Position numbers and translations under genes: made by a program
Notes under the pieces: generated by a model
What the model was told of the DNA's origin: nothing
Seen by the model: the letters and a program-made list of their open reading frames with translations, nothing else
Database searches by the model: none
Part shown: positions 1-17,201 of the stretch, one piece after another
How the letters are laid out: each line of letters begins with the position of its first letter
Position numbering within the stretch: position 1 is the first letter of the stretch
From: a virus
Taxonomy: Duplodnaviria; Heunggongvirae; Uroviricota; Caudoviricetes
IMG/VR virus record: IMGVR_UViG_3300009502_000019
Reading direction: 5' to 3' (one strand)
Length of the DNA stretch: 23,990 nucleotides

Positions 1-90
1 AGCCACCTCTTCTTGGCTAGCGGCCTTGAAGACTGGATTACCGGACTCAACCATGCTCTTGATAAGTGTAATGTCCTTCTCTAAGCTCAC
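1..90 (-). CDS. Leader/VFKAA-motif protein, 5' part only (runs off left edge)
   Basis: Not in the ORF track. GTG at 88-90 overlaps the TGA of the upstream gene (GTGA). Translates MSLEKDITLIKSMVESGNPVFKAASQEEVA..., the same leader as neighbouring genes. Confidence 0.85.
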   Translation of the reverse strand, partial: MSLEKDITLIKSMVESGNPVFKAASQEEVA

Positions 91-605
91 GATGTGTATT
101 CCTCAGGGTATCCTGAATCAAGCACGTCGAAGATCTTCACGTCCTGTGCGCTGTGCATGTCATCTGAAAACAGGTCGATCTCTTCAAACCTGCTCTGGGC
201 ATCTTCCGGGCTTGCCGCTTCGATAACTGCATAGCACTTGTAGATGAAACGGTAGAGCTTAGTCCCGCGGGCCGCCCGGCGCTTATTTAGCTCCGCCTGG
301 TCAGCTGCCTTGAAAACTGGCTTAGCTTCAGTTACACTAGCTTTGTAAGCATTAACCGCATTTACAATTAACTTTCCGTTCGCTTCCATTTCATCAGAGT
401 CGTACTCATCCCCAAACAACTTAGCAATACGATACTTGCCATCTGCAGACTCAATGATCTTTGGAGATCTCTTAGAAATAGCCCAAGGCCTCTGAGTTGC
501 CGTCACATTTCTACGTGCTTGTGCTTCTTCAGGGCTAGCCGCCTTAAATACAGGCTTAGCTTCCACCATCTTCTTGATCTCTGCTGCGTCTTTAGACAGG
601 CTCAT
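87..605 (-). CDS. Leader/VFKAA-motif protein with two motif copies, each followed by a different small domain
   Basis: MSLSKDAAEIKKMVEAKPVFKAASPEEAQARR..., with an internal VTEAKPVFKAADQAELNKRR. ATGA overlap with the upstream gene. Confidence 0.85.
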   Translation of the reverse strand: MSLSKDAAEIKKMVEAKPVFKAASPEEAQARRNVTATQRPWAISKRSPKIIESADGKYRIAKLFGDEYDSDEMEANGKLIVNAVNAYKASVTEAKPVFKAADQAELNKRRAARGTKLYRFIYKCYAVIEAASPEDAQSRFEEIDLFSDDMHSAQDVKIFDVLDSGYPEEYTS

Positions 606-1294
606 TTAGTCACCATGTTCTTTCTTCTAGTCTCCCAGCCACGTTTAGCTGAGTCACTCTTACCAAACATCGGATTGGCGCTTCCATACCGGTGAACCCC
701 AAACATACCATTGCTTTTGCCTGACTGGTCTGGCCGATTCTCCTTCATTCCCTTCCTAGCTTTCTCTGTATGCCGTCTACCGTACATACCATTATTCTTG
801 CCAACCCTACTCCCAGTAGAGCATCTAACCCAGCCGGCAATAATGTATTCACTAAGCATCTCAGGAGCAATCATACGTCTTTCACCAGTAGCCTTGTTAC
901 GAACATATCGATACGTTTTGCCATACCTAGGACAGTTAGACCCACTCAACTCTCCACGCTTACCCATGCAAAAACAGCACACACAATCACTAGAGTGACG
1001 AGTAAGGCCGCCGCCTCCGTCGCCACCCTCAGATATGTTGTAGAGCTTGTCTGCCCCATACGTAGCTTTGTACTTGGCTATGTGCTCTACTTCAAGCTCG
1101 TTAAGCTCATCCTTAGTTCTTGCATAAGCAATTGGCCTTGTTGTAAAAGCTTTCTTACCATATTTTTTAATTGCACGGTTTATACGCGTGCCCCCTCCGT
1201 GATACCAAGACTCAAAAGCGCCCTTATGCTTACCGACATAAAGCATCCCCGTCGCACTATTTATCGTTTCATATATGTACCCGTAGTTATTCAT
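602..1294 (-). CDS. Free-standing GIY-YIG homing endonuclease (T4 Seg-like) with NUMOD3-like C-terminal repeats
   Basis: GYIYETIN...LYVGKH, AIKKYG, ELNELE...YNISEGGDGG catalytic-domain pattern. C-terminal GKNNGMYGRRHT / GKSNGMFG / GSANPMFGK repeats. Confidence 0.9.
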   Translation of the reverse strand: MNNYGYIYETINSATGMLYVGKHKGAFESWYHGGGTRINRAIKKYGKKAFTTRPIAYARTKDELNELEVEHIAKYKATYGADKLYNISEGGDGGGGLTRHSSDCVCCFCMGKRGELSGSNCPRYGKTYRYVRNKATGERRMIAPEMLSEYIIAGWVRCSTGSRVGKNNGMYGRRHTEKARKGMKENRPDQSGKSNGMFGVHRYGSANPMFGKSDSAKRGWETRRKNMVTK

Positions 1295-1300
1295 AGAGTC

Positions 1301-1576
1301 CTATCGGTAAAAATAGCACATGTTCTCTTCTGGGCTGTAGCACCAACATAAATCTTCTTGGTCGTTGTACCCCCACCGAGGGTTGTGAATGTTCTCGTGT
1401 ACTTCCTCAACTTCACACATCTCGCTAAAAAGATTGCTTGTAAGCTCCATGCTCTCTCTAATAACCTCAGAGAGCTGCTCGTCTGTATAGCCGATCTCTT
1501 CTTCAGCATTGATGCTGTCGGCAACGAAGTACTTCTTCCTGGATTCGATGAGTTCTTTTAATAGTTCCGCGTACAT
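1301..1576 (-). CDS. Hypothetical acidic protein (likely start MYAELLKELIES at 1576)
   Basis: Fills the gap between flanking genes. AGGA Shine-Dalgarno-like sequence upstream of the ATG at 1576; the track's longer start at 1630 overlaps the upstream gene. Confidence 0.7.
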   Translation of the reverse strand: MYAELLKELIESRKKYFVADSINAEEEIGYTDEQLSEVIRESMELTSNLFSEMCEVEEVHENIHNPRWGYNDQEDLCWCYSPEENMCYFYR

Positions 1577-1589
1577 AATTATTCCTATT

Positions 1590-1865
1590 TTATTCAGCAA
1601 CGTAAGTGGCATCGACTGTAACAACGCCATCCGGAGTTATTCTTAAAAACTTATACGTAATGTCTGACGGCATTTCATTCCCAACTAAAGAATCAAGGTG
1701 TTCGTTAAGCTCGTTCACATCCACAAGATTCCAAAGATCAAACTTAAACCTGTGCGTCTTAAAGGGATTGGGTCTCTTAGCCACTTCTTCCCTACTAGCT
1801 GCTTTGAACACAGGCTTAGCTTCAACAAGTTTCTTTATCTCTGAGACATCTTTAGATAGGCTCAT
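1590..1865 (-). CDS. Leader/VFKAA-motif protein (start MSLSKD at 1865)
   Basis: MSLSKDVSEIKKLVEAKPVFKAASREEVAKR followed by a unique ~60-aa domain. The ATG sits 1 nt after the upstream TGA. Confidence 0.85.
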   Translation of the reverse strand: MSLSKDVSEIKKLVEAKPVFKAASREEVAKRPNPFKTHRFKFDLWNLVDVNELNEHLDSLVGNEMPSDITYKFLRITPDGVVTVDATYVAE

Positions 1866-1866
1866 A

Positions 1867-2205
1867 TCACCACACAACCTTATCCATGTTTTCTAAGTCA
1901 TACTCGTAACACTCGCCGCAGCTGGTCGCACTGCGATCGCCTGTCTCGTCGACACCACAATACCCGTCAACAAACTTGCCGTCCTTGAGCTTAGCGTTTT
2001 CTGTAGCCCATTCGTAAGTACACGAGAGAGACGTCGGAACAGCCTCGCAGACGTTGCACCACACCTTGCCTTCTGCTAACGCCTTCTGCTTCGCTGAGGA
2101 CATCACACTCTTACGCTTATCCATATCCTCTGGCCCGGCAGCTTTGAAGACTGGACTTGCCTCAAACATTCTCTTAAGTGATGTCACTGCTTCGTGTAAG
2201 CTCAT
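1867..2205 (-). CDS. Leader/VFKAA-motif protein with a putative Zn-binding domain (CxxC...CxxC)
   Basis: MSLHEAVTSLKRMFEASPVFKAAGPEDMDKR, then EGKVWCNVC...SCGEC. Paralog of 3716..4069. Confidence 0.85.
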   Translation of the reverse strand: MSLHEAVTSLKRMFEASPVFKAAGPEDMDKRKSVMSSAKQKALAEGKVWCNVCEAVPTSLSCTYEWATENAKLKDGKFVDGYCGVDETGDRSATSCGECYEYDLENMDKVVW

Positions 2206-2627
2206 AATGCTATAGCTCCGAGTTCTTTCAGCTCCTGCTTAGCCGTCTCTTCAGGAATAACAGTGTTATCTTCCGAGTAATACTCTATGTCGGTTGAATC
2301 GGCATCAGGAGGAGGAATACTTACTACCATTCGCTTGCCTGATCTTTTGTTAAAGACAATGTAAAATGAATAGCCAAGTGCGTAATATCTAGAGAACGTA
2401 TTCCTTGACGCGTCAGGGCTTGAGATTTCCCACTTAGTACCCTTGCCGTACTCGATCGCAAGTTCCTTAGACTCAAGCTCAACAACCCTCACATCAGCAG
2501 TATCCAGTACGACCCAGGACTTGTAGATCTCCCGACGCGCCACAACCTCTTCCGGGTCGGCCGCTCTAAACACCCAGTTCGCTTCAAACATCTTCTTAAG
2601 TGATGTCACTGCTTCGTATAGATTCAT
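2202..2627 (-). CDS. Leader/VFRAA-motif protein with one copy of a 'YGKGTKW' phage domain of unknown function
   Basis: MNLYEAVTSLKKMFEANWVFRAADPEEVVARR, then AIEYGKGTKW...FSRYYALGYSFYIVFNK, which aligns with both repeats in 2624..3715. Confidence 0.85.
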   Translation of the reverse strand: MNLYEAVTSLKKMFEANWVFRAADPEEVVARREIYKSWVVLDTADVRVVELESKELAIEYGKGTKWEISSPDASRNTFSRYYALGYSFYIVFNKRSGKRMVVSIPPPDADSTDIEYYSEDNTVIPEETAKQELKELGAIAL

Positions 2628-3715
2628 GCAGGAACTCCATATTTAGCCGCCATCTTTTTAAAATTAGCGGGAATCATTCGTTCGTCCCACAGTGTCACCT
2701 TACTGCCACCATCAGCAGGCGGCTGAAGCATCAAGTATTTATGATCATCAATCTTTGAAAACCAGTAATATATGTTGTATCCGCTCATTCCGTAGTAATT
2801 ACCAAATTGATTATCGGAAGGAGCGGCCACAAACCATTCAGTACCCTTACCGAGCTCGATCGCAGTATCCACATCATCTATGTAGTAGATTTTTATCTTA
2901 GGCGAGTCATACACTACACTGGCTTCACCTATTGTGAACTCTTTTGGAGCATACTTATCAAACATCCCAGCTAAATCACTAGCAGACAACCCTAGTTGAC
3001 TAAGGATGGTATCTACCCCCCTGTCATTGCGGTAATAGCCACGGTCTTCCTTTGTCCATAATATCCATTCATACCTAGGCGTGCTAGATGGATCCTCGTG
3101 CCCAAACACGCGAGGTGAAAGCAACCTGTAGGATACCGCAAACTTGTCTGATTCCTCATTAGTAGGATTCTTAGCTAAAATGTAATAGAGCCTCTTGTTT
3201 GCAGTATGGTAGTTACTAAACAGATTGCCTCTTCCCATAGCGGCCGTGCACCACTTAGACCCTCTTCCATAGTAAATAGCTTCGTTCTTATCACGGGGTT
3301 CAATAATCACAACCTTGTCATTGTCAAGTCTCACAATATCTGCTGGGATCTTACCAATCTCTTTAGACCCTTTCCTAAGAGAAGATCCGGTAAATATACC
3401 TTGGGAATCCTCCACTGCTTTCTCCACATCTTGGATGCTTTTATAAGAATATATATCGCTATTCTTAATAATCCCCCGAAAAGCCAAGTCGTGGAACTGC
3501 CGGATAATATCGAACTTTCCTAACTCGGGTGTGGTAATGTATTGCCTGCACATCCACACAAGGTACTTCTTCTGACTGGTCGGATCTTTCTCAGAAAGCT
3601 GCTCAAATGCATCCTCAGCAATCTTCCCCAAGTCAACAAACGTACGTTTAGCGTCTGCATACCCTTCATGCAGCTGAGCCATCACCTGAGTAACGTCGTT
3701 TTCTAAGCTCATCAA
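2624..3715 (-). CDS. Uncharacterised phage protein with a leader-like N-terminus, a DPT..KKY..W domain and two 'YG(R/K)G(S/T)xW' domains
   Basis: MSLENDVTQVMAQLHE leader without VFKAA. Contains KDPTSQKKYLVW, AIYYGRGSKWCTAA...NLFSNY...LYYIL and AIELGKGTEWF...FGNYY...IYYWF. Start is TTG 3715 or ATG 3712. Confidence 0.8.
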   Translation of the reverse strand: MMSLENDVTQVMAQLHEGYADAKRTFVDLGKIAEDAFEQLSEKDPTSQKKYLVWMCRQYITTPELGKFDIIRQFHDLAFRGIIKNSDIYSYKSIQDVEKAVEDSQGIFTGSSLRKGSKEIGKIPADIVRLDNDKVVIIEPRDKNEAIYYGRGSKWCTAAMGRGNLFSNYHTANKRLYYILAKNPTNEESDKFAVSYRLLSPRVFGHEDPSSTPRYEWILWTKEDRGYYRNDRGVDTILSQLGLSASDLAGMFDKYAPKEFTIGEASVVYDSPKIKIYYIDDVDTAIELGKGTEWFVAAPSDNQFGNYYGMSGYNIYYWFSKIDDHKYLMLQPPADGGSKVTLWDERMIPANFKKMAAKYGVPA

Positions 3716-4069
3716 TCACCAATCATTCAGCTTGTCTATTATTTGCTTCTCATTCACTAAATTACCCTGGTAGCAGTCAACGCAGACAATGTAGTTAGGC
3801 TCCTGAACGTTCACCTCTCCCAAGCTAGCGATGGACTTGCCATCGTCTTTAAGCCGTACCTTCTGATTAGCTATACCAAACTCAACCATAAGCGCTCTAG
3901 GAACCTTCATGCAGTCATTGCACCATACCTTGCCCTCGGCAATAGCGGCCTTCTTCTCAGCGGCTATAGGTCCCATGCGCCTGGTTAGTTCATCACCACC
4001 AGCAGCCTTGAAGACGTTGTCAGCTTCCATGATCTTCTTGAGTGATGTAATGTCTTTTTCCAGGCTCAT
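3716..4069 (-). CDS. Leader/VFKAA-motif protein with a putative Zn-binding domain (CxxC...CxxC)
   Basis: MSLEKDITSLKKIMEADNVFKAAGGDELTRR, then EGKVWCNDC...VCVDC. Paralog of 1867..2205. Confidence 0.85.
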   Translation of the reverse strand: MSLEKDITSLKKIMEADNVFKAAGGDELTRRMGPIAAEKKAAIAEGKVWCNDCMKVPRALMVEFGIANQKVRLKDDGKSIASLGEVNVQEPNYIVCVDCYQGNLVNEKQIIDKLNDW

Positions 4070-5763
4070 TGAAAAATCTTCTCCAAGTGATCAACATCCA
4101 CATTCCTAAGTCCCTTACCATCCTGGAACTTGATGTCGGCCCTGACATCGTGCACTACCCAGTTAGTCCCGTAAGTATTTGTGCGCATGTCAGTAACTTT
4201 GCAAAACCTGCGGTAGTACTTGCTTGATGGATTTCCGCCCATGTACATTGCTGTGTCCCCAACCTGAATCTTTGACTCAGGACGCTTAGCTACATCTTCT
4301 GGACTTGCTGCTTTGAACACTTCCTCAGCCGCTTCATTCGTCACAGGAGTCAGGTAATCCTCAGTAGTCCACCTAAAGAAAATAAATGGGTGCACGAACT
4401 TAACTTCGTAACGGTAAAGCACCCCGCCTGTTGAGTCTTCAACAGGGCGATACATCGCTATCGTTCCAATGCGCCCATCCAAGTAATCATCAATGCCGCG
4501 TATTGAAGTGTGGTAGACAACCCGCTGACCATTTTGGAACTTAGGCTGCTTGATCCCACGCCTTGCAAGCTCTTCCTGGTTAGCAGCCTTAAATACTGGC
4601 TTGTTGACTGACTGATGCTTGTAGTCCGTTCCGCTAAGAGTCTCGTGGCTGATCAGATTCTCATCCCCTGCGTTAGGCATCACACCCGCCTCTTCGATCT
4701 TCTCGCCGCGAGCATGTATCGTAGCCGCGATCCAGTCCATGATCGTATCCATGCACTGTGCGCCTATTGCTGACCTGTTCTCATCCCCACCGTGCAGTAC
4801 TAGACCCACCCCGCGACAGCCCACCCTGCGGTAATGTCCAATCCTCTCATCCTTCCCAAAGATTGTGCTTACGTAATACCCGCCGTGGTAGCCATTGTCG
4901 AACTCAACTGTCCACTTAGGAGCATCTGAGTCTGACCAGTCCGACCGGCGCTTGTATAGTAAAACGTCCACGTTCCTCTTGTACTCAGCGTCGTAGAAAG
5001 ACTTGCTTACTTCCCCCGTCTTCCGGTCCAGATCTTCCCTGCGCTTGGCCACATCCTCAGCGCTAGCCGCTTTGAACACATGATCAGCCTCAAAGATACT
5101 CTTTAGGTCCGCAGTCATCCTGCCTACGTTCTTAACTGACTCGTTGTGGACAGGCTCATTATCTTCAGCGTTGTCTCTGTAGACATAAGTACCCTTCTTC
5201 TCGTCGTATACATACTCATCCGCGCCATACCCCTTAACATCAAACGCTAGCTCATAGGCTTCCTTGCTTCCTTCCTCTATGCCAGCGTTGTAGGTCTCAC
5301 TGCCTCCACGATACTCGAGCTCCCCGCAGTTCTGGCCAAAGTCCTCGTCAGCATACCTAACTTTGATAGTGACATCCGGGAACTTCTCGCTAAGTGCTCT
5401 AAAGATAGCGTAAGGAGCCCCCCAAGCAGTATCAAACCGCATCGTATGGTCATCTACCTTCTCTTGGCTGTAGGCATTCCACTTAGTGTCCCAATGCTCA
5501 ATGTTCCAGTTGTACCATCCCTGGTTCCTATATGCCTTCGTCTTAGGAGCCGGGATGATCTTGCCGAAGTCAATCTCGTGGATGTCTACTTTTCTGCGGG
5601 CCACCTCTTCTTCAGAGGCCGCAGCAAATACCACACCAGCCTTGCGAGCCGGAAGTGGCTTACTGGCAAGCGTTGGGTCCACAGGAGAGATGGCAGCAAA
5701 GATCTCTTTTACTCTCTTGGTAGGGCCTTCTATGGTGAGTATGTTCGTTACGTGATTAGGCAT
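4066..5763 (-). CDS. Mosaic multidomain protein: N-terminal YubB/Api92-like (DUF1281-type ferredoxin-like) domain plus three further domains, with four VF(K/A)AA motifs
   Basis: MPNHVTNILTI...IDFGKIIP...WYNWNIEHWDTKWNA...FDTAWGAP...LSEKFP...YADED pattern. Motifs at aa 45, 229, 390 and 482. The last two domains look SH3/KOW-like (KFQNGQRVVY..., KIQVGDTAMY...). Confidence 0.8.
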   Translation of the reverse strand: MPNHVTNILTIEGPTKRVKEIFAAISPVDPTLASKPLPARKAGVVFAAASEEEVARRKVDIHEIDFGKIIPAPKTKAYRNQGWYNWNIEHWDTKWNAYSQEKVDDHTMRFDTAWGAPYAIFRALSEKFPDVTIKVRYADEDFGQNCGELEYRGGSETYNAGIEEGSKEAYELAFDVKGYGADEYVYDEKKGTYVYRDNAEDNEPVHNESVKNVGRMTADLKSIFEADHVFKAASAEDVAKRREDLDRKTGEVSKSFYDAEYKRNVDVLLYKRRSDWSDSDAPKWTVEFDNGYHGGYYVSTIFGKDERIGHYRRVGCRGVGLVLHGGDENRSAIGAQCMDTIMDWIAATIHARGEKIEEAGVMPNAGDENLISHETLSGTDYKHQSVNKPVFKAANQEELARRGIKQPKFQNGQRVVYHTSIRGIDDYLDGRIGTIAMYRPVEDSTGGVLYRYEVKFVHPFIFFRWTTEDYLTPVTNEAAEEVFKAASPEDVAKRPESKIQVGDTAMYMGGNPSSKYYRRFCKVTDMRTNTYGTNWVVHDVRADIKFQDGKGLRNVDVDHLEKIFQ

Positions 5764-5922: not shown

Positions 5923-5993
5923 TATTTCCCCCTATCCGGACAGTCTGTCCTAGGGCAACTGCCGCACCTCTTGGAATCGTGAATACAGGACAC
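5922..5993 (-). CDS. Possible 23-aa Cys-rich micro-ORF bridging the portal stop and the next start
   Basis: GTG overlaps the portal TAG (TAGTG). Translates MSCIHDSKRCGSCPRTDCPDRGK. Its TAA overlaps the next ATG (TAATG). Confidence 0.4.
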   Translation of the reverse strand: MSCIHDSKRCGSCPRTDCPDRGK

Positions 5994-8900
5994 TACTTTG
6001 TCCCTTCGTTCAGGGAGGTAACGTTAATGGGAGCATCCTTCCACTGGCTCTCCCACAACTGTCCTGTCTTGTGGTTTGGAAGGGGCGAGCTCAAGTCACT
6101 GATTCGTAGCGACTCCTTACTTTCTCTAAATGGGTTGGTTGCCTCTTGCTCCTCTTCTCCACCTTCAGCTGCTGGCTCTTCTACACCAGGTACAGGAACA
6201 TCTCTATGGTCTCCCTGTATGGCCTTAGCATCACCCTTCAGGTACAAGGTGTCTAAGTCAAGGTCTGACAGCTTAAAGAACTTCTCATTGAAGTACGTAA
6301 GGAGCTCTTTCTTGTTGAGGTCTACTCCAACCATATCCTGAAGCATGTCGTACAAACCGCGGGTGGCATCCACAGACTTCCCTAGTGCGTCCTGGAGCTC
6401 TACCTCTTCTGCACTGGAAGATTGCGACATGTGGATCTGGAAAAGGTCTAGGTCAGGATCGAGGCCTTGCCAAGCAAGGTGTATCTGTGCCATCCTGGTG
6501 AGCCCGTTGATCAAACTTCTCTGTACTCTACGTGCTTGTCTGGCGAACCGGATGTCCATACGCTCTAAGGCTGTACCGCCTTCGAAGCCCCCACCGCCTT
6601 CACCTGAGAATCCCGCGAGGAGCTGCTTTGGGACTTTTAGAGCGGTAATCAACTGATTCTCAAGTTTATCTACGTCAGCGATCCACTTAATATCCGTATC
6701 TCCACCTAGGGTCTCTACCGTGAGGTTGTTGCTGTCTCCCCATACCGGGAATATCAAATCCTCACAACTTGCCATAGCGTTGAAGCGATCCAAGTAGCCT
6801 GGGTTGTTGGAGTCGAGATTGAGTGCTCTAGAGTTATGGACAAAAATACCACAACTCAATGCAAAGTTGTGGTTCTTCTCTGTAGAAATATCATACGTAT
6901 CAACTGTATACGGCAGAACTTCTACACTTATTACTTTATGGTTGAGAACTGTGTGTTTCCGCTTAGCCCAACTAATTTTTCCGCCCAAACTTATTTTCTT
7001 CCTCGATTCAAATGTTTGTTTATGCCCGGGCTTTCCAATATGTGATAATGCAATCTTACGATTATGATCCTGACTATTTTTCTTATTCTTCCTGTGATGG
7101 TATTGAACATACGCTTGATCTGAACTTATCTTACATTCGAATGTTTCACCACAACCGCACCCACAAACCCGAGTCTCTTTAGGTGCTACTGGTTTATTGT
7201 GGTTACCCATCTTTGACTTAGACGCTTTGGCACGAACCTCGGGGCGACCCATCGGATTACTCTGTTTAACTTTATCCGATATTACTTGCATTCGACGGTC
7301 AGTTTCTTTAGTTAATCCGTCATTCCAACTTTTTCTAAAACCTAAGTCATATTGTACCTGTTGGGTCTCCGAAACACTTTTAGCATACTTTGCAACTCTT
7401 TCATCGGTTTCTTTAGTCAATCCTTTATTCCACGCTTGTATAGACCCTCGCTTAGCAATAATCTTATCCGTGAATAAGTGATGAATAGACATGTGGTCAT
7501 GCTTGGTAACAATCTTCAGATTAGACGGGTCATCGTCCAGCTTGTTTTCGTTTTCGTGGTGAACTACACAATCTTTAGGAGTTTTCCCGTCTATACATTC
7601 CGAAACAAGCTTATACACCAACGGGAATTTTCCAGTCTTGGGGTTAAGAACCTGCCGTCTGCCTTCGCTGCTTACCTTAGTATACAATGGCATCAGGCTA
7701 TCACCCTGAACCAAGTCCTTGGCTTCTTTGAAGCTCCCGTCCCTCATCATAAACCTGTGGTCTGGAGTGCATTCGACATACTCTTCATTGTCTAAATGAA
7801 CTCTCATAACAGTAGCATCAACAACTGTCTTAGCGACATCTACAATCTTGTCAGGCTCAATAGCCTTCGTTATTGGATTAACACTGTATACGTATTTTCC
7901 AACATACTTCTCCTTATTTTCAGCCATTTCCTTAATTGTAGGATTAGTATTGTTCAACAAAGCTATTTTGGTGTCACCAACCAAGCAACGTTTGATCTCA
8001 GTCATGTACTGGTCTACCAGGTTAGCTACAGCTTCCGCGTTTGCATTATCTTCTGGGATCGTCACTTTGAAGAGGAAGCGTTGAGGACTTTTCATAATTC
8101 GCGCCATCATGATAGAGTCTTCTGCGAGCCTAAGGCGTTTCCAAATTGGGAGGGCGTCTGCGAGGATGCTTGTGCCGTACTTGGAGGTTAATCGGCGTGC
8201 ATCTGGGGTCATTATACTCACCGTCCTGAACTCGCTGTTGGAAATAAACACACCCGCTGTTACTGGAAAATTGTGGTTGCCTGAAATTTCTATATCGTAA
8301 GTATCCTCTCTTTCAGTTAGCCACTCAACTATGACTACCTTGTGGTTTAGAACAGCGGCCTTCTCTAAATTCTTGGGGCTCACCTTGCATCCCTTGGCAT
8401 GCCCTGCTAATCCTGGATATTTTCCTACCCATTTCTTTCCACAATATTTGCAGGTTAGTTCTTTTATCTCATTTACAGCTTCTTTTATTAGGTTTGTACA
8501 ATGGTGTCTAAATGCTGGGTCTGAGTATGCTTTTTGTTGACCTTCTTTCGTCCTTTTTGCCTGCTTATCGTGATACTCTTTATCGCTCCAAACCTTCTTC
8601 GAGCCTTCTCCAATGTTTCTTTTCCACTCAGTATTTTCATTTCGCTCTTCCATAGCCCGGTTAAACTTATCTCTATAAGCAGGGTCTTCAAATCGTTCTA
8701 CCGCTTTCTGACTAATTTTCTTGCCGTGCTCATCCCACAGCTCAGGATTCTCAGCTTTACTTCGTGCGACCCCATCCTTAACTGACTTTCTATGGGCCTC
8801 TTTCCATTCGGGATCCTGCCTAAGCTCATCTAAGTTATTTGCATGTATCTCCATGTGCTTAGCCTTAGTAACAACCTCTAAACACTTGGGATCATTATTC

Positions 8901-11900
8901 TTCTTATCAAACAACTTTCGTTCATCCCCCCAGTGGTGGACAATACTGCCTTTTGGAGTCTTACCATATGTTTGCTTGGCAACCAGCCTATGAATAAAAT
9001 GCCATTCTCCATCTGCTGGGTTATATACCTGCTGGTAATCCTTAAATCTCTTTCTGGAATCTTCTCGAGTATACAACGGCATTAGGCTCTCTCCCTGGAA
9101 AAGATCCTGCGCTTCCTTGTAGCTACCATCCCTAAGCATAAACTTATGATCTGGTGTGCAGTCAATATGTTGTTCATTATCAAGATGAACACGTACCAGT
9201 TGAGCATCTAGGCGGGTTTTCTTTGCATCTACAATTTGCCCAACCTCAAGATTAAGGGTCTGCGGATTGATTGTTAGTACAGATTTTCCTTTATAGAAAG
9301 CGAGGTTCTCTGTGATTTCTTTTATGGTTGGGGTTGTATTATCTAGAAGATTTATTCGTGTATTTCCAGCTATACAATATTGTTGATCGGCGTATAGTGG
9401 CCTCCGCTTCTTGGCTCCTAAGAGTCTGAAGTGTACATGGTCCCACGGTGCTAGTAACTTACGGGTGTCTGTAGTTGCGTAGCCGAGTGGAGTCTGGAAA
9501 AACCCCACTAATCTTCCGTTGTGATCTACCCTGCTGACGTTGATTGGATGGTTATCATCGTTGACGCATATGAGTCCTACGCCTGGTTCTCCAAAACACT
9601 CTACAAAGAGATCACCGAAAGCTGCTGTAGTCCAGGCCCAATCGTATATGACTTCCTCGATGTTGATCACGTCCAGCATCTTCTCCAGCTGGTAGCGATA
9701 TTCTTTATTGTCAGAAGTTACCCACACAGTTGAACCGTGTAGTGGGGAGCGCTGACAAGCTGTGTCTGCAAATGCGACACACGCCGCGCTATTGTGAACA
9801 AACACTCCGGCGGACAAAGCAAAATTGTGGAATGGCTCTATTGTTAGATCATAGACGTCTGCCACAGCGTTTAGCCTTACAACTTCTTTTACCTTGTGAT
9901 TCCTAATCCCCTTATTCCACGGTGTCCCACCAACCTTAGACTCCGCCATATGCATGACGCGCTCGTCTGTCTCTTTTGTGAGCCCGACGTTCCAACGCGG
10001 CTTAGTCGCATACTTAGCAACTCTAATGTCTTCTTTTGTCAGCCCTTTGTTCCAAGCCGTCTGCCCGATCTTACCCTTATTGTGAGGAGCCCTGCCTCTC
10101 ATTGCGGAGTTCCTACACTCATACGAACACGTCTTACGACGTGGATCCATCAGATCCGTGCATACAGGGCAAGGAACTTTCTTGTGATTGAACTCATAGA
10201 TCCTAATGGCTTCTTCGCGGCTAACCCCATAATGGTTCTGAATGGTACGAATAGCCTGGGCGAACCTGGCTTCCTGTGGCTTCGTGTGAACTGCACTGTG
10301 GTCTTTTTTGGAGAGGATGGAGTGGTTCTCCGGAGAGTCATCTAGTTTATTTAATGCGGAGTCTTTGAAATTTGTGTAAGAGTGGTGGACATGATTACCT
10401 GTACCGCGGTTCTTGTTGAAGTATGTGTACTGGACGCTATAGTGCTTTGGCTCTGCCTGGCGTGCGTTAAATGGGTCGTAGAGCCGCCAATACCCCTTGC
10501 GGTACTCCTTATCCACATACCGGTATAGAGGCATAAGGGAGTCATCTGGCTTAAGCTGCTGGGCTTCCTTGTATGATCCGTCCCTAAGCATGAACCTATG
10601 GTCTAGTGTGCAGCGGATCTCTTCGCCGTTGTCCAAGACAACCTTCAAGATCTCCTTAGTCCCAGTCTTCCAAGCTCGTTTAATCGGGCTACGAACGATC
10701 TTCTTACCGTCTAGGTCTATCGAATAAACATGGTTTACTTTACCCTGTTCATACTCTTTAGCCAACTGCTCCATTGACACATCCCTGCCGTCAAGCAGGG
10801 CGACCTTGGTGTCACCTGTGAAGCACATGAGGGCGTGGTTAAGTGAGCGATCGACTACCTGGTAAACCGAGTTGTGAACAAATACTCCGGCAACCGTTGG
10901 AAAATTGTGGTTACGTTCTGTTGAAATATCGTAAACATCTTCACGAACAGTAAGCGTCTCAACAAATAAAACTTTGTGGTTTTTGAGCGACTTGGTTTTC
11001 TTAACCCCAGTAGTTTTTCGTCTGATAAGCTCTATTACACAATCGCGCTTACTGCACGACTGGCGATTCCCCACTTTGGTCGTAAATTCACATCCGCACA
11101 CAACACACGTTTTAGTCAGGAGGGGTCTACGATATCTTTTGATATTCCAAATAGCCTTTGTTTGCTGTTCCCTGTATTCTGGACTGTTCCATAAAGCCTG
11201 TTGTGCATCTTTACGTTTTTGCAGCCAAAATGGCTTCTGTGCGTTTAGTTTGTTAGCACAGTCTCTGCACACCCTCCAGTCGCTTGTAACAATAACTGTC
11301 TTTGTAAGACCGCATCCGCCCAAACATTCTCTGGTTTCTCTGGGCTTGACCATCTTCCTATGAAGTTTCTGTAAATGCTCCTTGTGACTTACTTCGTTAA
11401 AATGTATCTTGTTGTGGTCGGACTTTGACATCCTTTCCAGACAAGATGGGTCATTGTTTACCTTATCATATTTGCACCGATCGTCTCCCTTGTGGTGCAC
11501 TATCACTCCCTTAGGGCGTTTGCCGTTGAAAAACTTATCAACTAGCCAATGAACGTATGTCCACCCACCCTTCGGCTTGTAAACCATTAAATAATCTTTT
11601 AAAACTTTTGCTGGTTTCTTTAGGTACAAAGGCATCAAACTTTCCCCTTGAGCCAAGTCCTTTGCTTCCTTAAAGGTCCCATTCCTAAGCATAAACTTAT
11701 GGTCTGGTGTGCAGTCAATGTGATTCTCATTGTCTAGATGAACGCGAATCATCTCTGCATTTAGGCGAGTTTTTGTTGCGGCTAATATCTTATCTGGCTC
11801 GATTTCAAGCGTGGTTGGATTAACTGAAAGAACGTACTTCCCAACATAGTCTTGGTTGTTCTCAGCCATCTCTTTGATTGTTGGAGTAGTTCCGTCTAGG

Positions 11901-12112
11901 AGGGAAATTCTAGTGTCCCCACGAAGGCAGCTGCGTTCGTAGATGATGAGGTTTTGGTCTGAGATGACCTGGCGGAGAGCTTCGTTGGATATCCCATACG
12001 CCTTCCACATATCCGCGTCTTCTTTGGAGGTTGCTACTTTCTTTACTTCTGGCGGGGTGACTGGGGTGCGTTCAGGAACTAACTTTTGGCGTAGAAACTT
12101 TAGGATATCCAT
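5993..12112 (-). CDS. Portal protein (T4 gp20-like) precursor containing four inteins; predicted mature protein 576 aa
   Basis: Joined exteins (61+15+138+83+279 aa) give T4 gp20-like motifs: LNHALMSAACVAFADTA, HVHFRL, YGTSILADALPIWKRLRLAEDSIMMARIMKSPQRFLFKV, EDLIFP...ETLGG, LITALKVP, IRFARQARRVQ. Confidence 0.9.
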   Translation of the reverse strand: MDILKFLRQKLVPERTPVTPPEVKKVATSKEDADMWKAYGISNEALRQVISDQNLIIYERSCLRGDTRISLLDGTTPTIKEMAENNQDYVGKYVLSVNPTTLEIEPDKILAATKTRLNAEMIRVHLDNENHIDCTPDHKFMLRNGTFKEAKDLAQGESLMPLYLKKPAKVLKDYLMVYKPKGGWTYVHWLVDKFFNGKRPKGVIVHHKGDDRCKYDKVNNDPSCLERMSKSDHNKIHFNEVSHKEHLQKLHRKMVKPRETRECLGGCGLTKTVIVTSDWRVCRDCANKLNAQKPFWLQKRKDAQQALWNSPEYREQQTKAIWNIKRYRRPLLTKTCVVCGCEFTTKVGNRQSCSKRDCVIELIRRKTTGVKKTKSLKNHKVLFVETLTVREDVYDISTERNHNFPTVAGVFVHNSVYQVVDRSLNHALMCFTGDTKVALLDGRDVSMEQLAKEYEQGKVNHVYSIDLDGKKIVRSPIKRAWKTGTKEILKVVLDNGEEIRCTLDHRFMLRDGSYKEAQQLKPDDSLMPLYRYVDKEYRKGYWRLYDPFNARQAEPKHYSVQYTYFNKNRGTGNHVHHSYTNFKDSALNKLDDSPENHSILSKKDHSAVHTKPQEARFAQAIRTIQNHYGVSREEAIRIYEFNHKKVPCPVCTDLMDPRRKTCSYECRNSAMRGRAPHNKGKIGQTAWNKGLTKEDIRVAKYATKPRWNVGLTKETDERVMHMAESKVGGTPWNKGIRNHKVKEVVRLNAVADVYDLTIEPFHNFALSAGVFVHNSAACVAFADTACQRSPLHGSTVWVTSDNKEYRYQLEKMLDVINIEEVIYDWAWTTAAFGDLFVECFGEPGVGLICVNDDNHPINVSRVDHNGRLVGFFQTPLGYATTDTRKLLAPWDHVHFRLLGAKKRRPLYADQQYCIAGNTRINLLDNTTPTIKEITENLAFYKGKSVLTINPQTLNLEVGQIVDAKKTRLDAQLVRVHLDNEQHIDCTPDHKFMLRDGSYKEAQDLFQGESLMPLYTREDSRKRFKDYQQVYNPADGEWHFIHRLVAKQTYGKTPKGSIVHHWGDERKLFDKKNNDPKCLEVVTKAKHMEIHANNLDELRQDPEWKEAHRKSVKDGVARSKAENPELWDEHGKKISQKAVERFEDPAYRDKFNRAMEERNENTEWKRNIGEGSKKVWSDKEYHDKQAKRTKEGQQKAYSDPAFRHHCTNLIKEAVNEIKELTCKYCGKKWVGKYPGLAGHAKGCKVSPKNLEKAAVLNHKVVIVEWLTEREDTYDIEISGNHNFPVTAGVFISNSEFRTVSIMTPDARRLTSKYGTSILADALPIWKRLRLAEDSIMMARIMKSPQRFLFKVTIPEDNANAEAVANLVDQYMTEIKRCLVGDTKIALLNNTNPTIKEMAENKEKYVGKYVYSVNPITKAIEPDKIVDVAKTVVDATVMRVHLDNEEYVECTPDHRFMMRDGSFKEAKDLVQGDSLMPLYTKVSSEGRRQVLNPKTGKFPLVYKLVSECIDGKTPKDCVVHHENENKLDDDPSNLKIVTKHDHMSIHHLFTDKIIAKRGSIQAWNKGLTKETDERVAKYAKSVSETQQVQYDLGFRKSWNDGLTKETDRRMQVISDKVKQSNPMGRPEVRAKASKSKMGNHNKPVAPKETRVCGCGCGETFECKISSDQAYVQYHHRKNKKNSQDHNRKIALSHIGKPGHKQTFESRKKISLGGKISWAKRKHTVLNHKVISVEVLPYTVDTYDISTEKNHNFALSCGIFVHNSRALNLDSNNPGYLDRFNAMASCEDLIFPVWGDSNNLTVETLGGDTDIKWIADVDKLENQLITALKVPKQLLAGFSGEGGGGFEGGTALERMDIRFARQARRVQRSLINGLTRMAQIHLAWQGLDPDLDLFQIHMSQSSSAEEVELQDALGKSVDATRGLYDMLQDMVGVDLNKKELLTYFNEKFFKLSDLDLDTLYLKGDAKAIQGDHRDVPVPGVEEPAAEGGEEEQEATNPFRESKESLRISDLSSPLPNHKTGQLWESQWKDAPINVTSLNEGTK
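6833..7987 (-). mobile_element. Intein 4 (385 aa, class 1) with an HNH-like endonuclease and WNKGLTKE repeats
   Basis: Begins CLVGDTKIALLN, has CTPDH, ends YDIST...HNF...VHN followed by Ser+1. Contains VVHHENENKLDDDPSNL...HMSIHH, WNKGLTKETDERV and CGCGCGETF. Confidence 0.93.
8237..9376 (-). mobile_element. Intein 3 (380 aa, class 1, non-canonical penultimate Ser) with an HNH endonuclease
   Basis: Begins CIAGNTRINLLD, has CTPDH, ends YDIEI...HNF...VFISN followed by Ser+1. HNH region IHRLVA...IVHH...NNDPKCLE...HMEIH, then helical repeats and CKYC...H...C. Confidence 0.92.
9791..10825 (-). mobile_element. Intein 2 (345 aa, class 1) with an HNH-like endonuclease and WNKGLTKE repeats
   Basis: Begins CFTGDTKVALLD, has block B CTLDH, ends YDLTI...HNF...VHN followed by Ser+1. 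Contains HVHH...NKLDDSPEN...HSAVH, CPVC/CSYEC and WNKGLTKE repeats. Confidence 0.93.
10871..11929 (-). mobile_element. Intein 1 (353 aa, class 1) with an HNH endonuclease and Cys-rich C-terminal module
   Basis: Begins C1 (CLRGDTRISLLD), has block B CTPDH, ends YDIS...HNF...VHN followed by Ser+1. HNH region VHWLV...VIVHH...NNDPSCLE...HNKIH. Also CLGGCG, CRDC, CVVCGC. Confidence 0.93.
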
Positions 12113-15285: not shown

Positions 15286-17201
15286 TTGATTGGGCAAACT
15301 CCCTTTGAGCATTCTTCCACGTTCAAGTCCTCAGTACCGATATTTGTCTTTGTTATATCCTTGAGCCCGGCAGTAAGCTCCTTATACCTGTCTTCCGTTA
15401 TCTCTTCGTAAGGCGCCTGATCAAACCCATGCTCGCTGTGCAATAAGAAACTGACGCTCTTAATGTTCTCTTTGTAATGCTCCTTAAGCCACTTCTTTAT
15501 TTCCGGGATCTCCTCTTTCTTGTAGTACACCGTGACACTTACAGCATTATCGGCCCACACGGTCTGCATCTGCTTTACGAGATCCAGCTGCTTGATGGCT
15601 GTCATGTCCTTTGCGAGCATAACGTCATTCCCGGCAAAGCATGGAAACTCAACTACCATAGTCGCGTGATCAACTGTCCCATCAAAGTTCGATACGTAGT
15701 CAACCTTGTATCCTCGCTTCTTGCACACATCGATCAACTTATCATCTGAGGACATGCGTACGCGCCTAATGTAATACCTGCTATAGGCCGGGTGAATACC
15801 GGGAGTAGCTCCTGCGAGAAGGCTCAAAGTGCCGCTAGGCTTAACTGTAGTGAGCTTAATGCTCTCGTTATACCCCTGCTTCTTACTCCACTCCTTGTCA
15901 AACACTCGAAGAGCCTTGTATGCTTCATTTAGCCACTCGAGCTTGTGAAATGACTGGCAGATGCCCGTGCACCCAACTCCAATACGCATGTTCTTATGGA
16001 CGATCTTATTTGTCTCCTCATGGATAAAGTTAAGGTTGCAGACCGCTTTCTGCGCCTTGTATAGAAGCTTTGCGCAGTCAATCAGTTCCTCTTTAGACTG
16101 GACATTATTTAGATACAACTCAGACAGGTTGCAGCACTCCTTGTCAGCCAGTGCAATCTCAGCACATGGGTTGACCCCCTGGCAGTTGTCCTTGCGATGC
16201 TCACCCACGCGCCCGATCCTCTGAGCGAGCTTCACATTAAAGAGCCCGTAGGGCTCCCCATTACCGTGGTACCCTTCCCACACGTCGTTTGTGATATGAG
16301 TGTAGTCATCAGCAAAGATGGTATTGTTGGAAAGAGCTCTCCAGTTAGGGATGTGCCCCAAGTCCCACCTCTTTGCACGGATAAAGAGGTAATCATCCGG
16401 GTCGCCCAATGCGATCTGAGCGGATCTACGAATGTTCCCGGATACAACGATGCTCCCAATGATGTTACACACATCGAGCACATCGATCGACCGGAGCTTT
16501 TTACCCTCCCTCGACTGAAGTGTCTTCGTTATGTTTGCTATCCCCTCAACAAGAATACCCGGTCCTGACGCAGTGCCTCCGAAGCCCTGAATCTTCTCTC
16601 CGTACCCGCGAACGATTATGGTTGAGTAGCTAAAGGAACGTCCCGTTACAAAGAAAGACTTGAGCAAGCGACGCAACAACGCTACCCATCCCTCGCGACT
16701 ATCCGGTACAATGAAGTCGGCGTCCTTTGTGTTTAAATGAGTAATCTTTACCCCTTCCTGAACCTTAGGAAGCTCATAAACATCTTCGCGGCTTACAGAA
16801 AACCCAACTCCTCCGCCAAGCATCAAATTCTCAAACAAAAAACAGAAGTCCTCTGGCTCGTTCATCTGCACAAACCAGCAATTCAAAAGGCCGTTGCCTC
16901 CGTACCTCTTTATACCGGAAGTCCCAAGTTGCCAAAGCATTCGGCCGGCCATATTACATCTAAGATTAAACATGTGATCAAATAGCCGTTCCGCCTCATC
17001 TTTTGTATAGCCAGCACCGATCTCCTGAGCCCCGTTGATACAACGTGCAACGGTCTCATACCACTCCTCGTTACTTCCGTCCGGATTAATACGACTATAT
17101 GTCCTTTTGTATACAACATATCCAAGACCATTAAACCCAAATGGCGGGGTCTTGTCTTTGTATTTGGCTAAGAACCCGTCAGTAATTATCTTGTCAGTCA
17201 T
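15282..17201 (-). CDS. nrdJ: Class II (adenosylcobalamin-dependent) ribonucleotide reductase, RTPR-type; no ATP cone, no intein
   Basis: VYKRTYSR, LLNCWF, GGGVGFS, PDSREGW, GNIRRSA, NPCAEI, CNLSE, TTVKPSGT and C-terminal ECSKGVCPIK. The AGAAGGA SD spacing fits the ATG at 17201 better than 17210. Confidence 0.95.
   Translation of the reverse strand: MTDKIITDGFLAKYKDKTPPFGFNGLGYVVYKRTYSRINPDGSNEEWYETVARCINGAQEIGAGYTKDEAERLFDHMFNLRCNMAGRMLWQLGTSGIKRYGGNGLLNCWFVQMNEPEDFCFLFENLMLGGGVGFSVSREDVYELPKVQEGVKITHLNTKDADFIVPDSREGWVALLRRLLKSFFVTGRSFSYSTIIVRGYGEKIQGFGGTASGPGILVEGIANITKTLQSREGKKLRSIDVLDVCNIIGSIVVSGNIRRSAQIALGDPDDYLFIRAKRWDLGHIPNWRALSNNTIFADDYTHITNDVWEGYHGNGEPYGLFNVKLAQRIGRVGEHRKDNCQGVNPCAEIALADKECCNLSELYLNNVQSKEELIDCAKLLYKAQKAVCNLNFIHEETNKIVHKNMRIGVGCTGICQSFHKLEWLNEAYKALRVFDKEWSKKQGYNESIKLTTVKPSGTLSLLAGATPGIHPAYSRYYIRRVRMSSDDKLIDVCKKRGYKVDYVSNFDGTVDHATMVVEFPCFAGNDVMLAKDMTAIKQLDLVKQMQTVWADNAVSVTVYYKKEEIPEIKKWLKEHYKENIKSVSFLLHSEHGFDQAPYEEITEDRYKELTAGLKDITKTNIGTEDLNVEECSKGVCPIK

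Follow-up and report, generated by a model that had tools for sequence, protein, structure and literature searches.

P0001, an open reading frame (ORF) of 565 amino acids (aa) at 4066..5763 on the minus strand, carries in its translation four copies of a 13-residue peptide, here called the FK-tag. It lies in a 23,990-nt stretch (the window) of the phage record IMGVR_UViG_3300009502_000019 (Caudoviricetes). Comparison of its parts with genes of the same and other phages gives good support for P0001 having arisen naturally by the fusion of three or four head-cargo cassettes in an uncultured T4-like giant phage from a lake. With several cassettes fused in a row, P0001 probably acts as a polyprotein of head-packaged cargo. 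We lean towards a fuller reading, in which the fused cassettes would be resolved by the phage's gp21-type protease and the FK-tag would serve as a docking or retention peptide. Packaging, cleavage and the role of the tag in this phage are what we infer from sequence comparison.

Tags and cut-type sites in P0001

Translation of 4066-5763(-) places the motif VF(K/A)AA(S/N)xE(E/D)(V/L)AxR at aa 45, 229, 390 and 482, where the original prediction had put it, and the linker sites that it had listed, VHNE208-S, IFE225-A, IEE358-A and TNE477-A (the hyphen stands behind the Glu of a candidate cut), are all present. All features of P0001 given below are on the minus strand. Module 1 (aa 1-205; 5149..5763) has a DUF1281/Api92-like fold, as judged from Pfam (DUF1281_C), AlphaFold2 (AF2), Foldseek and stand-alone homologues. 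Tag 1 (aa 45-57, VFAAASEEEVARR; 5593..5631) lies in a loop of this module, with no cleavage-type site upstream. HNE208-S (5137..5148), whose NE-S is conserved in the stand-alone homologues, marks the start of a leader-like helix at the C-terminus of module 1. Tag 2 (aa 229-241, VFKAASAEDVAKR; 5041..5079) has the canonical T4-type site IFE225-A (5086..5097) 3 residues ahead of it, and is the only tag of P0001 with a canonical site directly upstream. The stretch leading up to this tag, RMTADLKSIFE-A, is a near-complete leader, as had been proposed, and matches the N-terminal leaders of neighbouring genes.

Module 2 (aa 242-355; 4699..5040) is followed by IEE358-A (4687..4698), the only other canonical site in P0001, which aligns with the leader ends KKMFE-Q of P0006 and KKLFE-E of P0004. 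From there to tag 3 (aa 390-402, VFKAANQEELARR; 4558..4596) runs a fossil post-leader linker (AGVMPNAGDENLISHETLSGTDYKHQSVNKP; 4597..4689), homologous to the segment behind the N-terminal leaders of P0004 and P0006. Module 3 (aa 403-474; 4342..4557) is predicted to be a small beta unit. After the non-canonical site TNE477-A (4330..4341), whose homologous position in P0004 reads LVE-S, come tag 4 (aa 482-494, VFKAASPEDVAKR; 4282..4320) and module 4 (aa 495-565; 4069..4281).

The motif is frequent in the phage. Its 83.6-kb IMG/VR contig holds 15 copies, whereas 200 shuffles gave 0.015 on average, so chance does not account for them. Synonymous positions differ freely among the copies, which argues for selection on the peptide and rules out a DNA element as the main explanation of the motif. 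In general form, the FK-tag reads h-F-K-A/P-A-S/G-x-E/D-E/D-h-x-x-R (h, hydrophobic) and stands directly behind a leader, which in neighbouring genes reads MSL-x-KD(I/V)(T/S)x(I/L)KK-h-h-E-A (also given as MSLEKDITxIKKhhE-A). Most cassette genes have such a leader, and it is conserved across phages.

Site and tag were compared in a pooled set of 67 tags from four loci, namely the phage's own two contigs and two loci from other phages found via homologues (L013 and L014). The tripeptide [LIVM]-x-E occurs 1-5 residues upstream of the tag in 56 of the 67 (84%), against a background of 12.9% in the same proteins (binomial p = 5e-39, with the copies being paralogues and thus not independent). At 40 of these 56 sites, the residue after Glu is Ala. 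An alignment of 52 tag copies has F and R without exception, and conservation of the upstream E is 90% or higher.

When 5.8 billion proteins were searched with a profile, up to nine tags were found per protein, in P0151 (1150 aa) and P0152 (1364 aa). Tags of multi-tag proteins are spaced by 60-310 aa, and nearly all of them stand 1-5 residues after Glu, most with a hydrophobic residue at P3. The tag also varies by lineage, as IFKPAS, (I/V)FKA(A/P)(S/T)PENL, IFKPPT, IFKGAS and LFKP, in phages whose proteases have only 32-40% identity with that of the phage studied here. For example, the locus L022 (IMGVR_UViG_3300027863_000054; protease 40% identical) has at least five paralogous genes starting MKKLLESLLE-QDIFKPPTEEEL, which shows that the leader-plus-tag unit is old and diversifying by lineage. 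No Pfam or PHROG family covering leader and tag was found, and a literature search with tag strings returned nothing relevant. A NUP50 match on tag 3 is weak and a Lar-like zinc ribbon in P0151 is sub-threshold; both are treated as chance or unproven.

Fusion and shuffling of cassettes

The original prediction had supposed that separate cassette genes were fused, and this is borne out by stand-alone homologues of module 1, colinearity with P0004, a fossil leader at the junction of modules 2 and 3, and the shuffling of modules among relatives. P0001 residues 368-509 are colinear with P0004 (38% identity, E = 6e-20) through the linker, tag 3, module 3, tag 4 and the start of module 4. P0004 is a separate 212-aa gene of another phage, located downstream of the portal gene, with its own leader and with the canonical LVE-S where P0001 has TNE-A. 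The module 2/3 junction of P0001, IEE-AGVMPNAGDENLISHETL, matches the region right behind the leaders of P0006 and P0004.

In an all-against-all comparison, the inter-tag segments are the units of homology, and they are shuffled, fused and split among relatives. The same module can have a single-cassette gene to itself in one phage and lie inside a multi-module protein in another; the module of a 131-aa single-tag ORF of the phage studied here, for example, matches the second of three modules in an L013 protein and the third of four in P0158. Such an alternation of stand-alone and internal forms would follow if fusing or splitting the genes made no difference to the products. The fused 565-aa ORF itself also occurs in P0003 (98% identical), in L015 and in a 97-kb contig. 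As it recurs in independent assemblies, it is not an assembly artefact.

A module-by-module search for homologues, which had been proposed as a check, gave a divided answer. Module 1 and modules 3+4 do occur as separate genes, while the sole relative of module 2 is an internal segment of P0005, a metagenomic protein of 678 aa without FK-tags. P0005 repeats another junction peptide, xTNE-ATSFPPP, which may be an alternative tag system. Module 2 had no usable match in an ESM Atlas feature search, and the cargo modules matched no informative family in Pfam or PHROGs. Modules 3 and 4 of P0001 give no BLASTP alignment with each other, so their paralogy is not shown. P0001 is made up of several independently evolving units, with sites at two of the three junctions and a non-canonical one at the third.

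Module 1 belongs to DUF1281 (Pfam PF18406, 60.2 bits against a cut-off of 22.8, E = 1.9e-16) and matches Api92 (PDB 2ijr) in Foldseek with E = 7.7e-5. Its closest relatives, P0009-P0013, are stand-alone proteins of 212-238 aa with ~50% identity. They carry a tag variant, (P/I/V)FKPAS..A.R, in the same loop as tag 1, and they end in NE-S plus a leader-like helix (...LKERFDKLVE-T). Two stand-alone relatives sit a few kb downstream of T4-type portals, P0011 being ~2 kb downstream. More distant DUF1281 proteins have neither the loop tag insert nor the C-terminal leader-like helix. While residues 1-200 of P0001 share the family with Api92, the FK-tag insert after helix 1 and the C-terminal NE-S helix are found only in the clade of P0009-P0013 and P0001.

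An AF2 model of P0001, built on a shallow alignment, is confident for residues 1-200 only, where the predicted local distance difference test (pLDDT) is 80-97. Tag 1 is modelled there as an extended stretch and then a short helix (residues 51-57; pLDDT ~80-85). Tags 2-4 fall between predicted secondary-structure blocks, and the S-P-E-E..R part of each tag is predicted as a short helix. Tag 1, by contrast, is not at a domain boundary but in a loop inside the DUF1281 domain, which corrects the earlier placing of tags at such boundaries. As for the independent domains that structure prediction was to reveal, residues 1-200 form a folded domain, while beyond residue 200 the low pLDDT neither supports nor excludes them. 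The AF2 picture of residues 200-565 is compatible with beads on a string, and is no proof of it.

Protease, capsid and the tagged gene cluster

The phage protease is of the T4 gp21 type. P0007, a 714-aa protease-scaffold fusion (L010 6552-8693), matches the PHROG 'head maturation protease' with 4.6e-16. It is itself unrecognised by Pfam, while its relatives with 55-59% identity match Peptidase_S77, two of them above the curated cut-off. The AF2 model of the protease domain has a mean pLDDT of 89.9, and in a fold search its only significant PDB matches are the three T4 gp21 chains of 5jbl (E = 1.9e-8, target TM score ~0.69); a PDB sequence search with the same domain found nothing meaningful. 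H76, S140 and D172 are invariant in 20 protease relatives.

Head proteases of the T4 family cut after Glu in a short motif, for example at ITE-6 and LTE-619 in Alt, or at A-x-E in SPN3US (PMC5694885). Conserved in the protease alignment are L-N-E6 and I-x-E16, both N-terminal, and A-L-L-E210, exactly at the end of the protease domain. The gp23-type major capsid protein P0008 (Pfam Gp23, 2.3e-30) has LVE-S, LLE-S and IFE-T within the ~75 residues ahead of its Gp23 core. As sequences, these sites in the protease and in the capsid propeptide fit a hydrophobic-x-Glu specificity. The protease of P0007 is fused to a charged, coiled-coil, scaffold-like region of ~500 residues, and the relatives range from 413 to 1195 aa; the conserved A-L-L-E at the protease/scaffold junction suggests self-release. 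A tag-like string in the scaffold region, VFKVPEEQAKQ, is not conserved in relatives and is probably a chance resemblance. Complex prediction with the protease domain (residues 17-212) and a leader-plus-tag peptide alignment scored 0.00 and 0.00, which gives no verdict.

The 83.6-kb contig (G000) ends within the cassette cluster and carries neither a protease nor a capsid gene. Scanning IMG/VR with the motif brought up one further contig (G001, IMGVR_UViG_3300009502_002976) with 24 more copies, among them ORFs of 643 aa (5 tags), 970 aa (5 tags) and 535 aa (3 tags). The ENA metagenomic contig L015 overlaps the end of the first contig at 99.98% (L015 50-6880) and the start of the second at 100% (L015 6808-15301), the two stretches sharing 73 nt. 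By this bridge, the two IMG/VR records follow each other in a single phage genome, where the portal gene is succeeded by ~27 kb of tagged genes, then the protease-scaffold gene for P0007 and the capsid gene for P0008. There are ~40 motif copies in the phage, mostly in the ~27-kb block, and about two dozen tagged genes between portal and protease. Portal-proximal tagged clusters are also found in L013 and L014. The cluster has the genome position of genes 67, 68, 21 and 22 in T4.

In the window, a T4-type portal gene with inteins (5993..12112, minus) lies directly upstream of the tagged cluster. P0001 is followed on the minus strand by a cassette gene with leader and tag, MSLEKDITSLKKIME-ADNVFKAAG (3716..4069), and by a 363-aa gene at 2624..3715 that has a leader only (MSLENDVTQVMAQLHE-G) and no tag, so leader and tag are separable. 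Three more cassette genes with leader and tag come next (2202..2627, 1867..2205 and 1590..1877, minus). P0002 (172 aa; 87..605, minus) carries two tags, the second behind SVTE-A, in agreement with the two-module layout that had been read from it. An ORF at 1301-1630 (-) has no FK-tag and contains an internal Met followed by MYAELLKELIE-S, a short leader like the capsid-targeting sequence (CTS) of T4.

A homing-endonuclease gene (602-1294 (-); PHROG 314, 1.2e-26) also lies within the tagged cassette cluster, and LAGLIDADG-like and GIY-YIG-like genes occur in its continuation (L007 7700-8281 and 11257-11970). A papain-family cysteine peptidase gene within the cluster (L007 13678-14538; Pfam Peptidase_C1, 2.9e-13) is untagged; its product may be a second enzyme for processing or itself part of the cargo. 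Far from the head module, the genome encodes two more tagged proteins (L005 666-989 and L006 638-1282), each with an N-terminal FK-tag and then RRPKPP. One adjoins a LemA-type membrane module, and the other lies between GroES-like genes.

The window DNA had no megablast match and P0002 no tblastn match among GenBank phages, where the portal has only distant relatives (<35% identity). Hidden Markov models of Peptidase_S77, Gp23 and Portal_T4 gave no match on the raw contigs, while protein-level searches did find the protease and capsid in G001.

Competing readings and known head proteins

In the reading towards which we lean, the leader would be a short N-terminal amphipathic capsid-targeting propeptide that ends in hydrophobic-x-Glu-Ala. 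The P0001 precursor would be incorporated into the prohead core, and the gp21-type protease would cut it after Glu225 and Glu358. Further cuts may occur after Glu208 and Glu477, and tag 1 would not be linked to a cut. This would free the DUF1281 module, module 2 and modules 3+4 from one another, as internal proteins that are probably ejected. An FK-tag would be left close to the new N-terminus of each piece and would act as a cargo-specific docking or retention peptide for a head component. On fusion of cassettes, the site-plus-tag unit would stay at each junction. Release of each module by the prohead protease, as the original prediction had it, is plausible from the sites and fits P0001 in part.

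A number of observations weigh against this reading. Within P0001, tag 1 lacks a cut site and sits inside a folded domain, the IEE-A that would serve tag 3 is 31 residues upstream, the TNE-A ahead of tag 4 has a non-hydrophobic P3, and residues 200-565 have pLDDT <50. Elsewhere, the two proteins whose genes are distant from the head module carry the tag N-terminally and lack a leader, and P0004 has a tag at its extreme C-terminus; the tag, therefore, need not sit at a new N-terminus. No tag accompanies the cut-type sites of the capsid protein or those of the protease; the tag therefore marks cargo and is not required for cutting in general. Inside modules, [LIVM]-x-E-[AS] is not depleted (36 observed vs 34.4 expected), and [LIVM]xE is weakly depleted (z = -2.5). 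Finally, in ~40 of 46 loci with related proteases, no tag lies closer than 10 kb to the protease.

In the main rival reading, P0001 stays uncleaved, as a multidomain protein in which a docking motif is repeated. The FK-tags would then bind one common partner, a component of the head or, once the cell is infected, a factor of host or phage, with repetition providing avidity and Glu-Ala being part of the motif or a helix cap. Tags in the module 1 loop, at leaderless N-termini and at the P0004 C-terminus suit such a protein, and so do the short helix predicted for S-P-E-E..R in each tag and the undepleted site-like tripeptides inside modules. On the other hand, the hydrophobic P3 and the Glu at P1 are kept in 84% though the spacer varies from 1 to 5 residues, which looks like two separable elements, and leaders with the same site end occur without a tag. 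The cluster is within a head-morphogenesis module beside a gp21-type protease, and free fusion and fission at tag boundaries would be easiest if the products were equivalent. With these points on both sides, we regard the docking protein as rather unlikely.

Two other explanations appear improbable. The tagged genes might encode early non-virion proteins that are near head genes only incidentally, with leader and tag directing turnover, localisation or recognition by the papain-like peptidase of the cluster. This would make sense of the Peptidase_C1-like gene within the cluster, of DUF1281 proteins in many phages and plasmids outside head modules, and of the two tagged proteins encoded elsewhere in the genome. 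However, in the four loci with a readable upstream region (the phage studied here, L013, L014 and the protease-proximal L018), the clusters are on the same strand as the portal and protease genes and sit between or beside them, and the leaders are mimics of the T4 CTS whose ends have the site type of the neighbouring protease. Even less probable, in our estimate, is that leader and tag are kept mainly as DNA homology for cassette recombination, the peptide having little function. Modules are clearly shuffled, and the 71 nt that encode the leader agree at 98.6% between a 117-aa cassette gene and the three-tag gene of 535 aa (L015 1838-1908 vs G001 16124-16194), the rest of the two genes being unrelated, which points to recent recombination or gene conversion at leaders. 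Yet most copies differ freely at synonymous sites, the peptide pattern is kept, in the lineage variants IFKPAS, IFKPPT and IFKGAS, where proteases are 32-40% identical, and the F and R of the tag never vary in the aligned copies.

The cleaved-cargo reading can be compared with known internal head proteins. The T4 internal proteins (IPs) IPI, IPII and IPIII and Alt, cut by gp21, are likewise unrelated cargo with a short N-terminal propeptide ending in hydrophobic-x-Glu and then Ala. The T4 CTS is MKTYQEFIAE (PMC8442874), and it is all that the diverse T4 IPs have in common (PMC3012670). The leaders resemble it in length and in its I-A-E ending, and the likeness extends to the head-module context and the protease fold. 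T4-type proteins with a CTS are marked by a propeptide of 10-20 aa that ends in a gp21 site; most cassette genes have such a leader, with IFE225-A and IEE358-A as its internal equivalents in P0001, and the phage encodes a gp21-family (S77) protease. Alt is cut at both ends, at ITE-6 and LTE-619 (PMC5694885), which parallels the C-terminal leader-like helix of the module 1 homologues. No homology to the T4 CTS or IPs was found, and neither P0001 nor the small cassette proteins match T4 IP families in PHROG or Pfam. Unlike in T4, the FK-tag follows the site and would remain on the mature protein, site plus tag are repeated up to nine times per protein, and about two dozen such genes occupy one portal-protease block.

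The inner-body and ejection proteins of the giant phages phiKZ, 201phi2-1 and SPN3US are also many paralogous head-internal proteins with conserved N-terminal propeptides, and a gp21-related protease cuts them after Glu in a short motif, at multiple sites per protein (PMC5694885). Their sites, however, are A/S/G-x-E and their propeptides exceed 100 residues, and PMC5694885 describes no repeated post-cleavage tag or beads-on-a-string layout for them. The capsid, portal and protease of the phage studied here are closer to the T4 type.

Tentatively, and at a likelihood that we put somewhat below even, T4-like giant phages may have an undescribed cargo system. A gp21-type site plus a retained FK-tag would mark dozens of unrelated proteins as destined for the inside of the capsid. 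The phage could encode these interchangeably, each in a gene of its own or joined in polyproteins of as many as nine modules that the head protease resolves, and the tag would amount to a new kind of signal for retention in the capsid or for ejection, functionally akin to the cargo-loading peptides of encapsulins. In encapsulins, a short conserved peptide, at termini or in linkers, directs unrelated cargo into a shell of the HK97 fold. That is a different system, which involves no protease step, and its peptides are not similar in sequence to the FK-tag. Compared with the T4 internal proteins, the retained tag behind the site, its repetition at up to nine junctions and the size of the cluster would be new.

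If this is true, the phage would devote a ~27-kb block to a large, fast-shuffling arsenal of packaged and probably injected proteins. These cargo proteins, nearly all of unknown function, would be candidates for host takeover in the first minute of infection or for anti-defence. With its site-plus-tag unit, the phage would have a short, portable signal by which several proteins are brought into a capsid and separated there, and metagenomes could be searched for such cargo by a sequence rule (hydrophobic-x-E and a short spacer, followed by h-F-K-A/P-A-S..E-h..R). The unit may thus be of use in understanding how giant-phage heads are organised and in engineering capsids as protein carriers.

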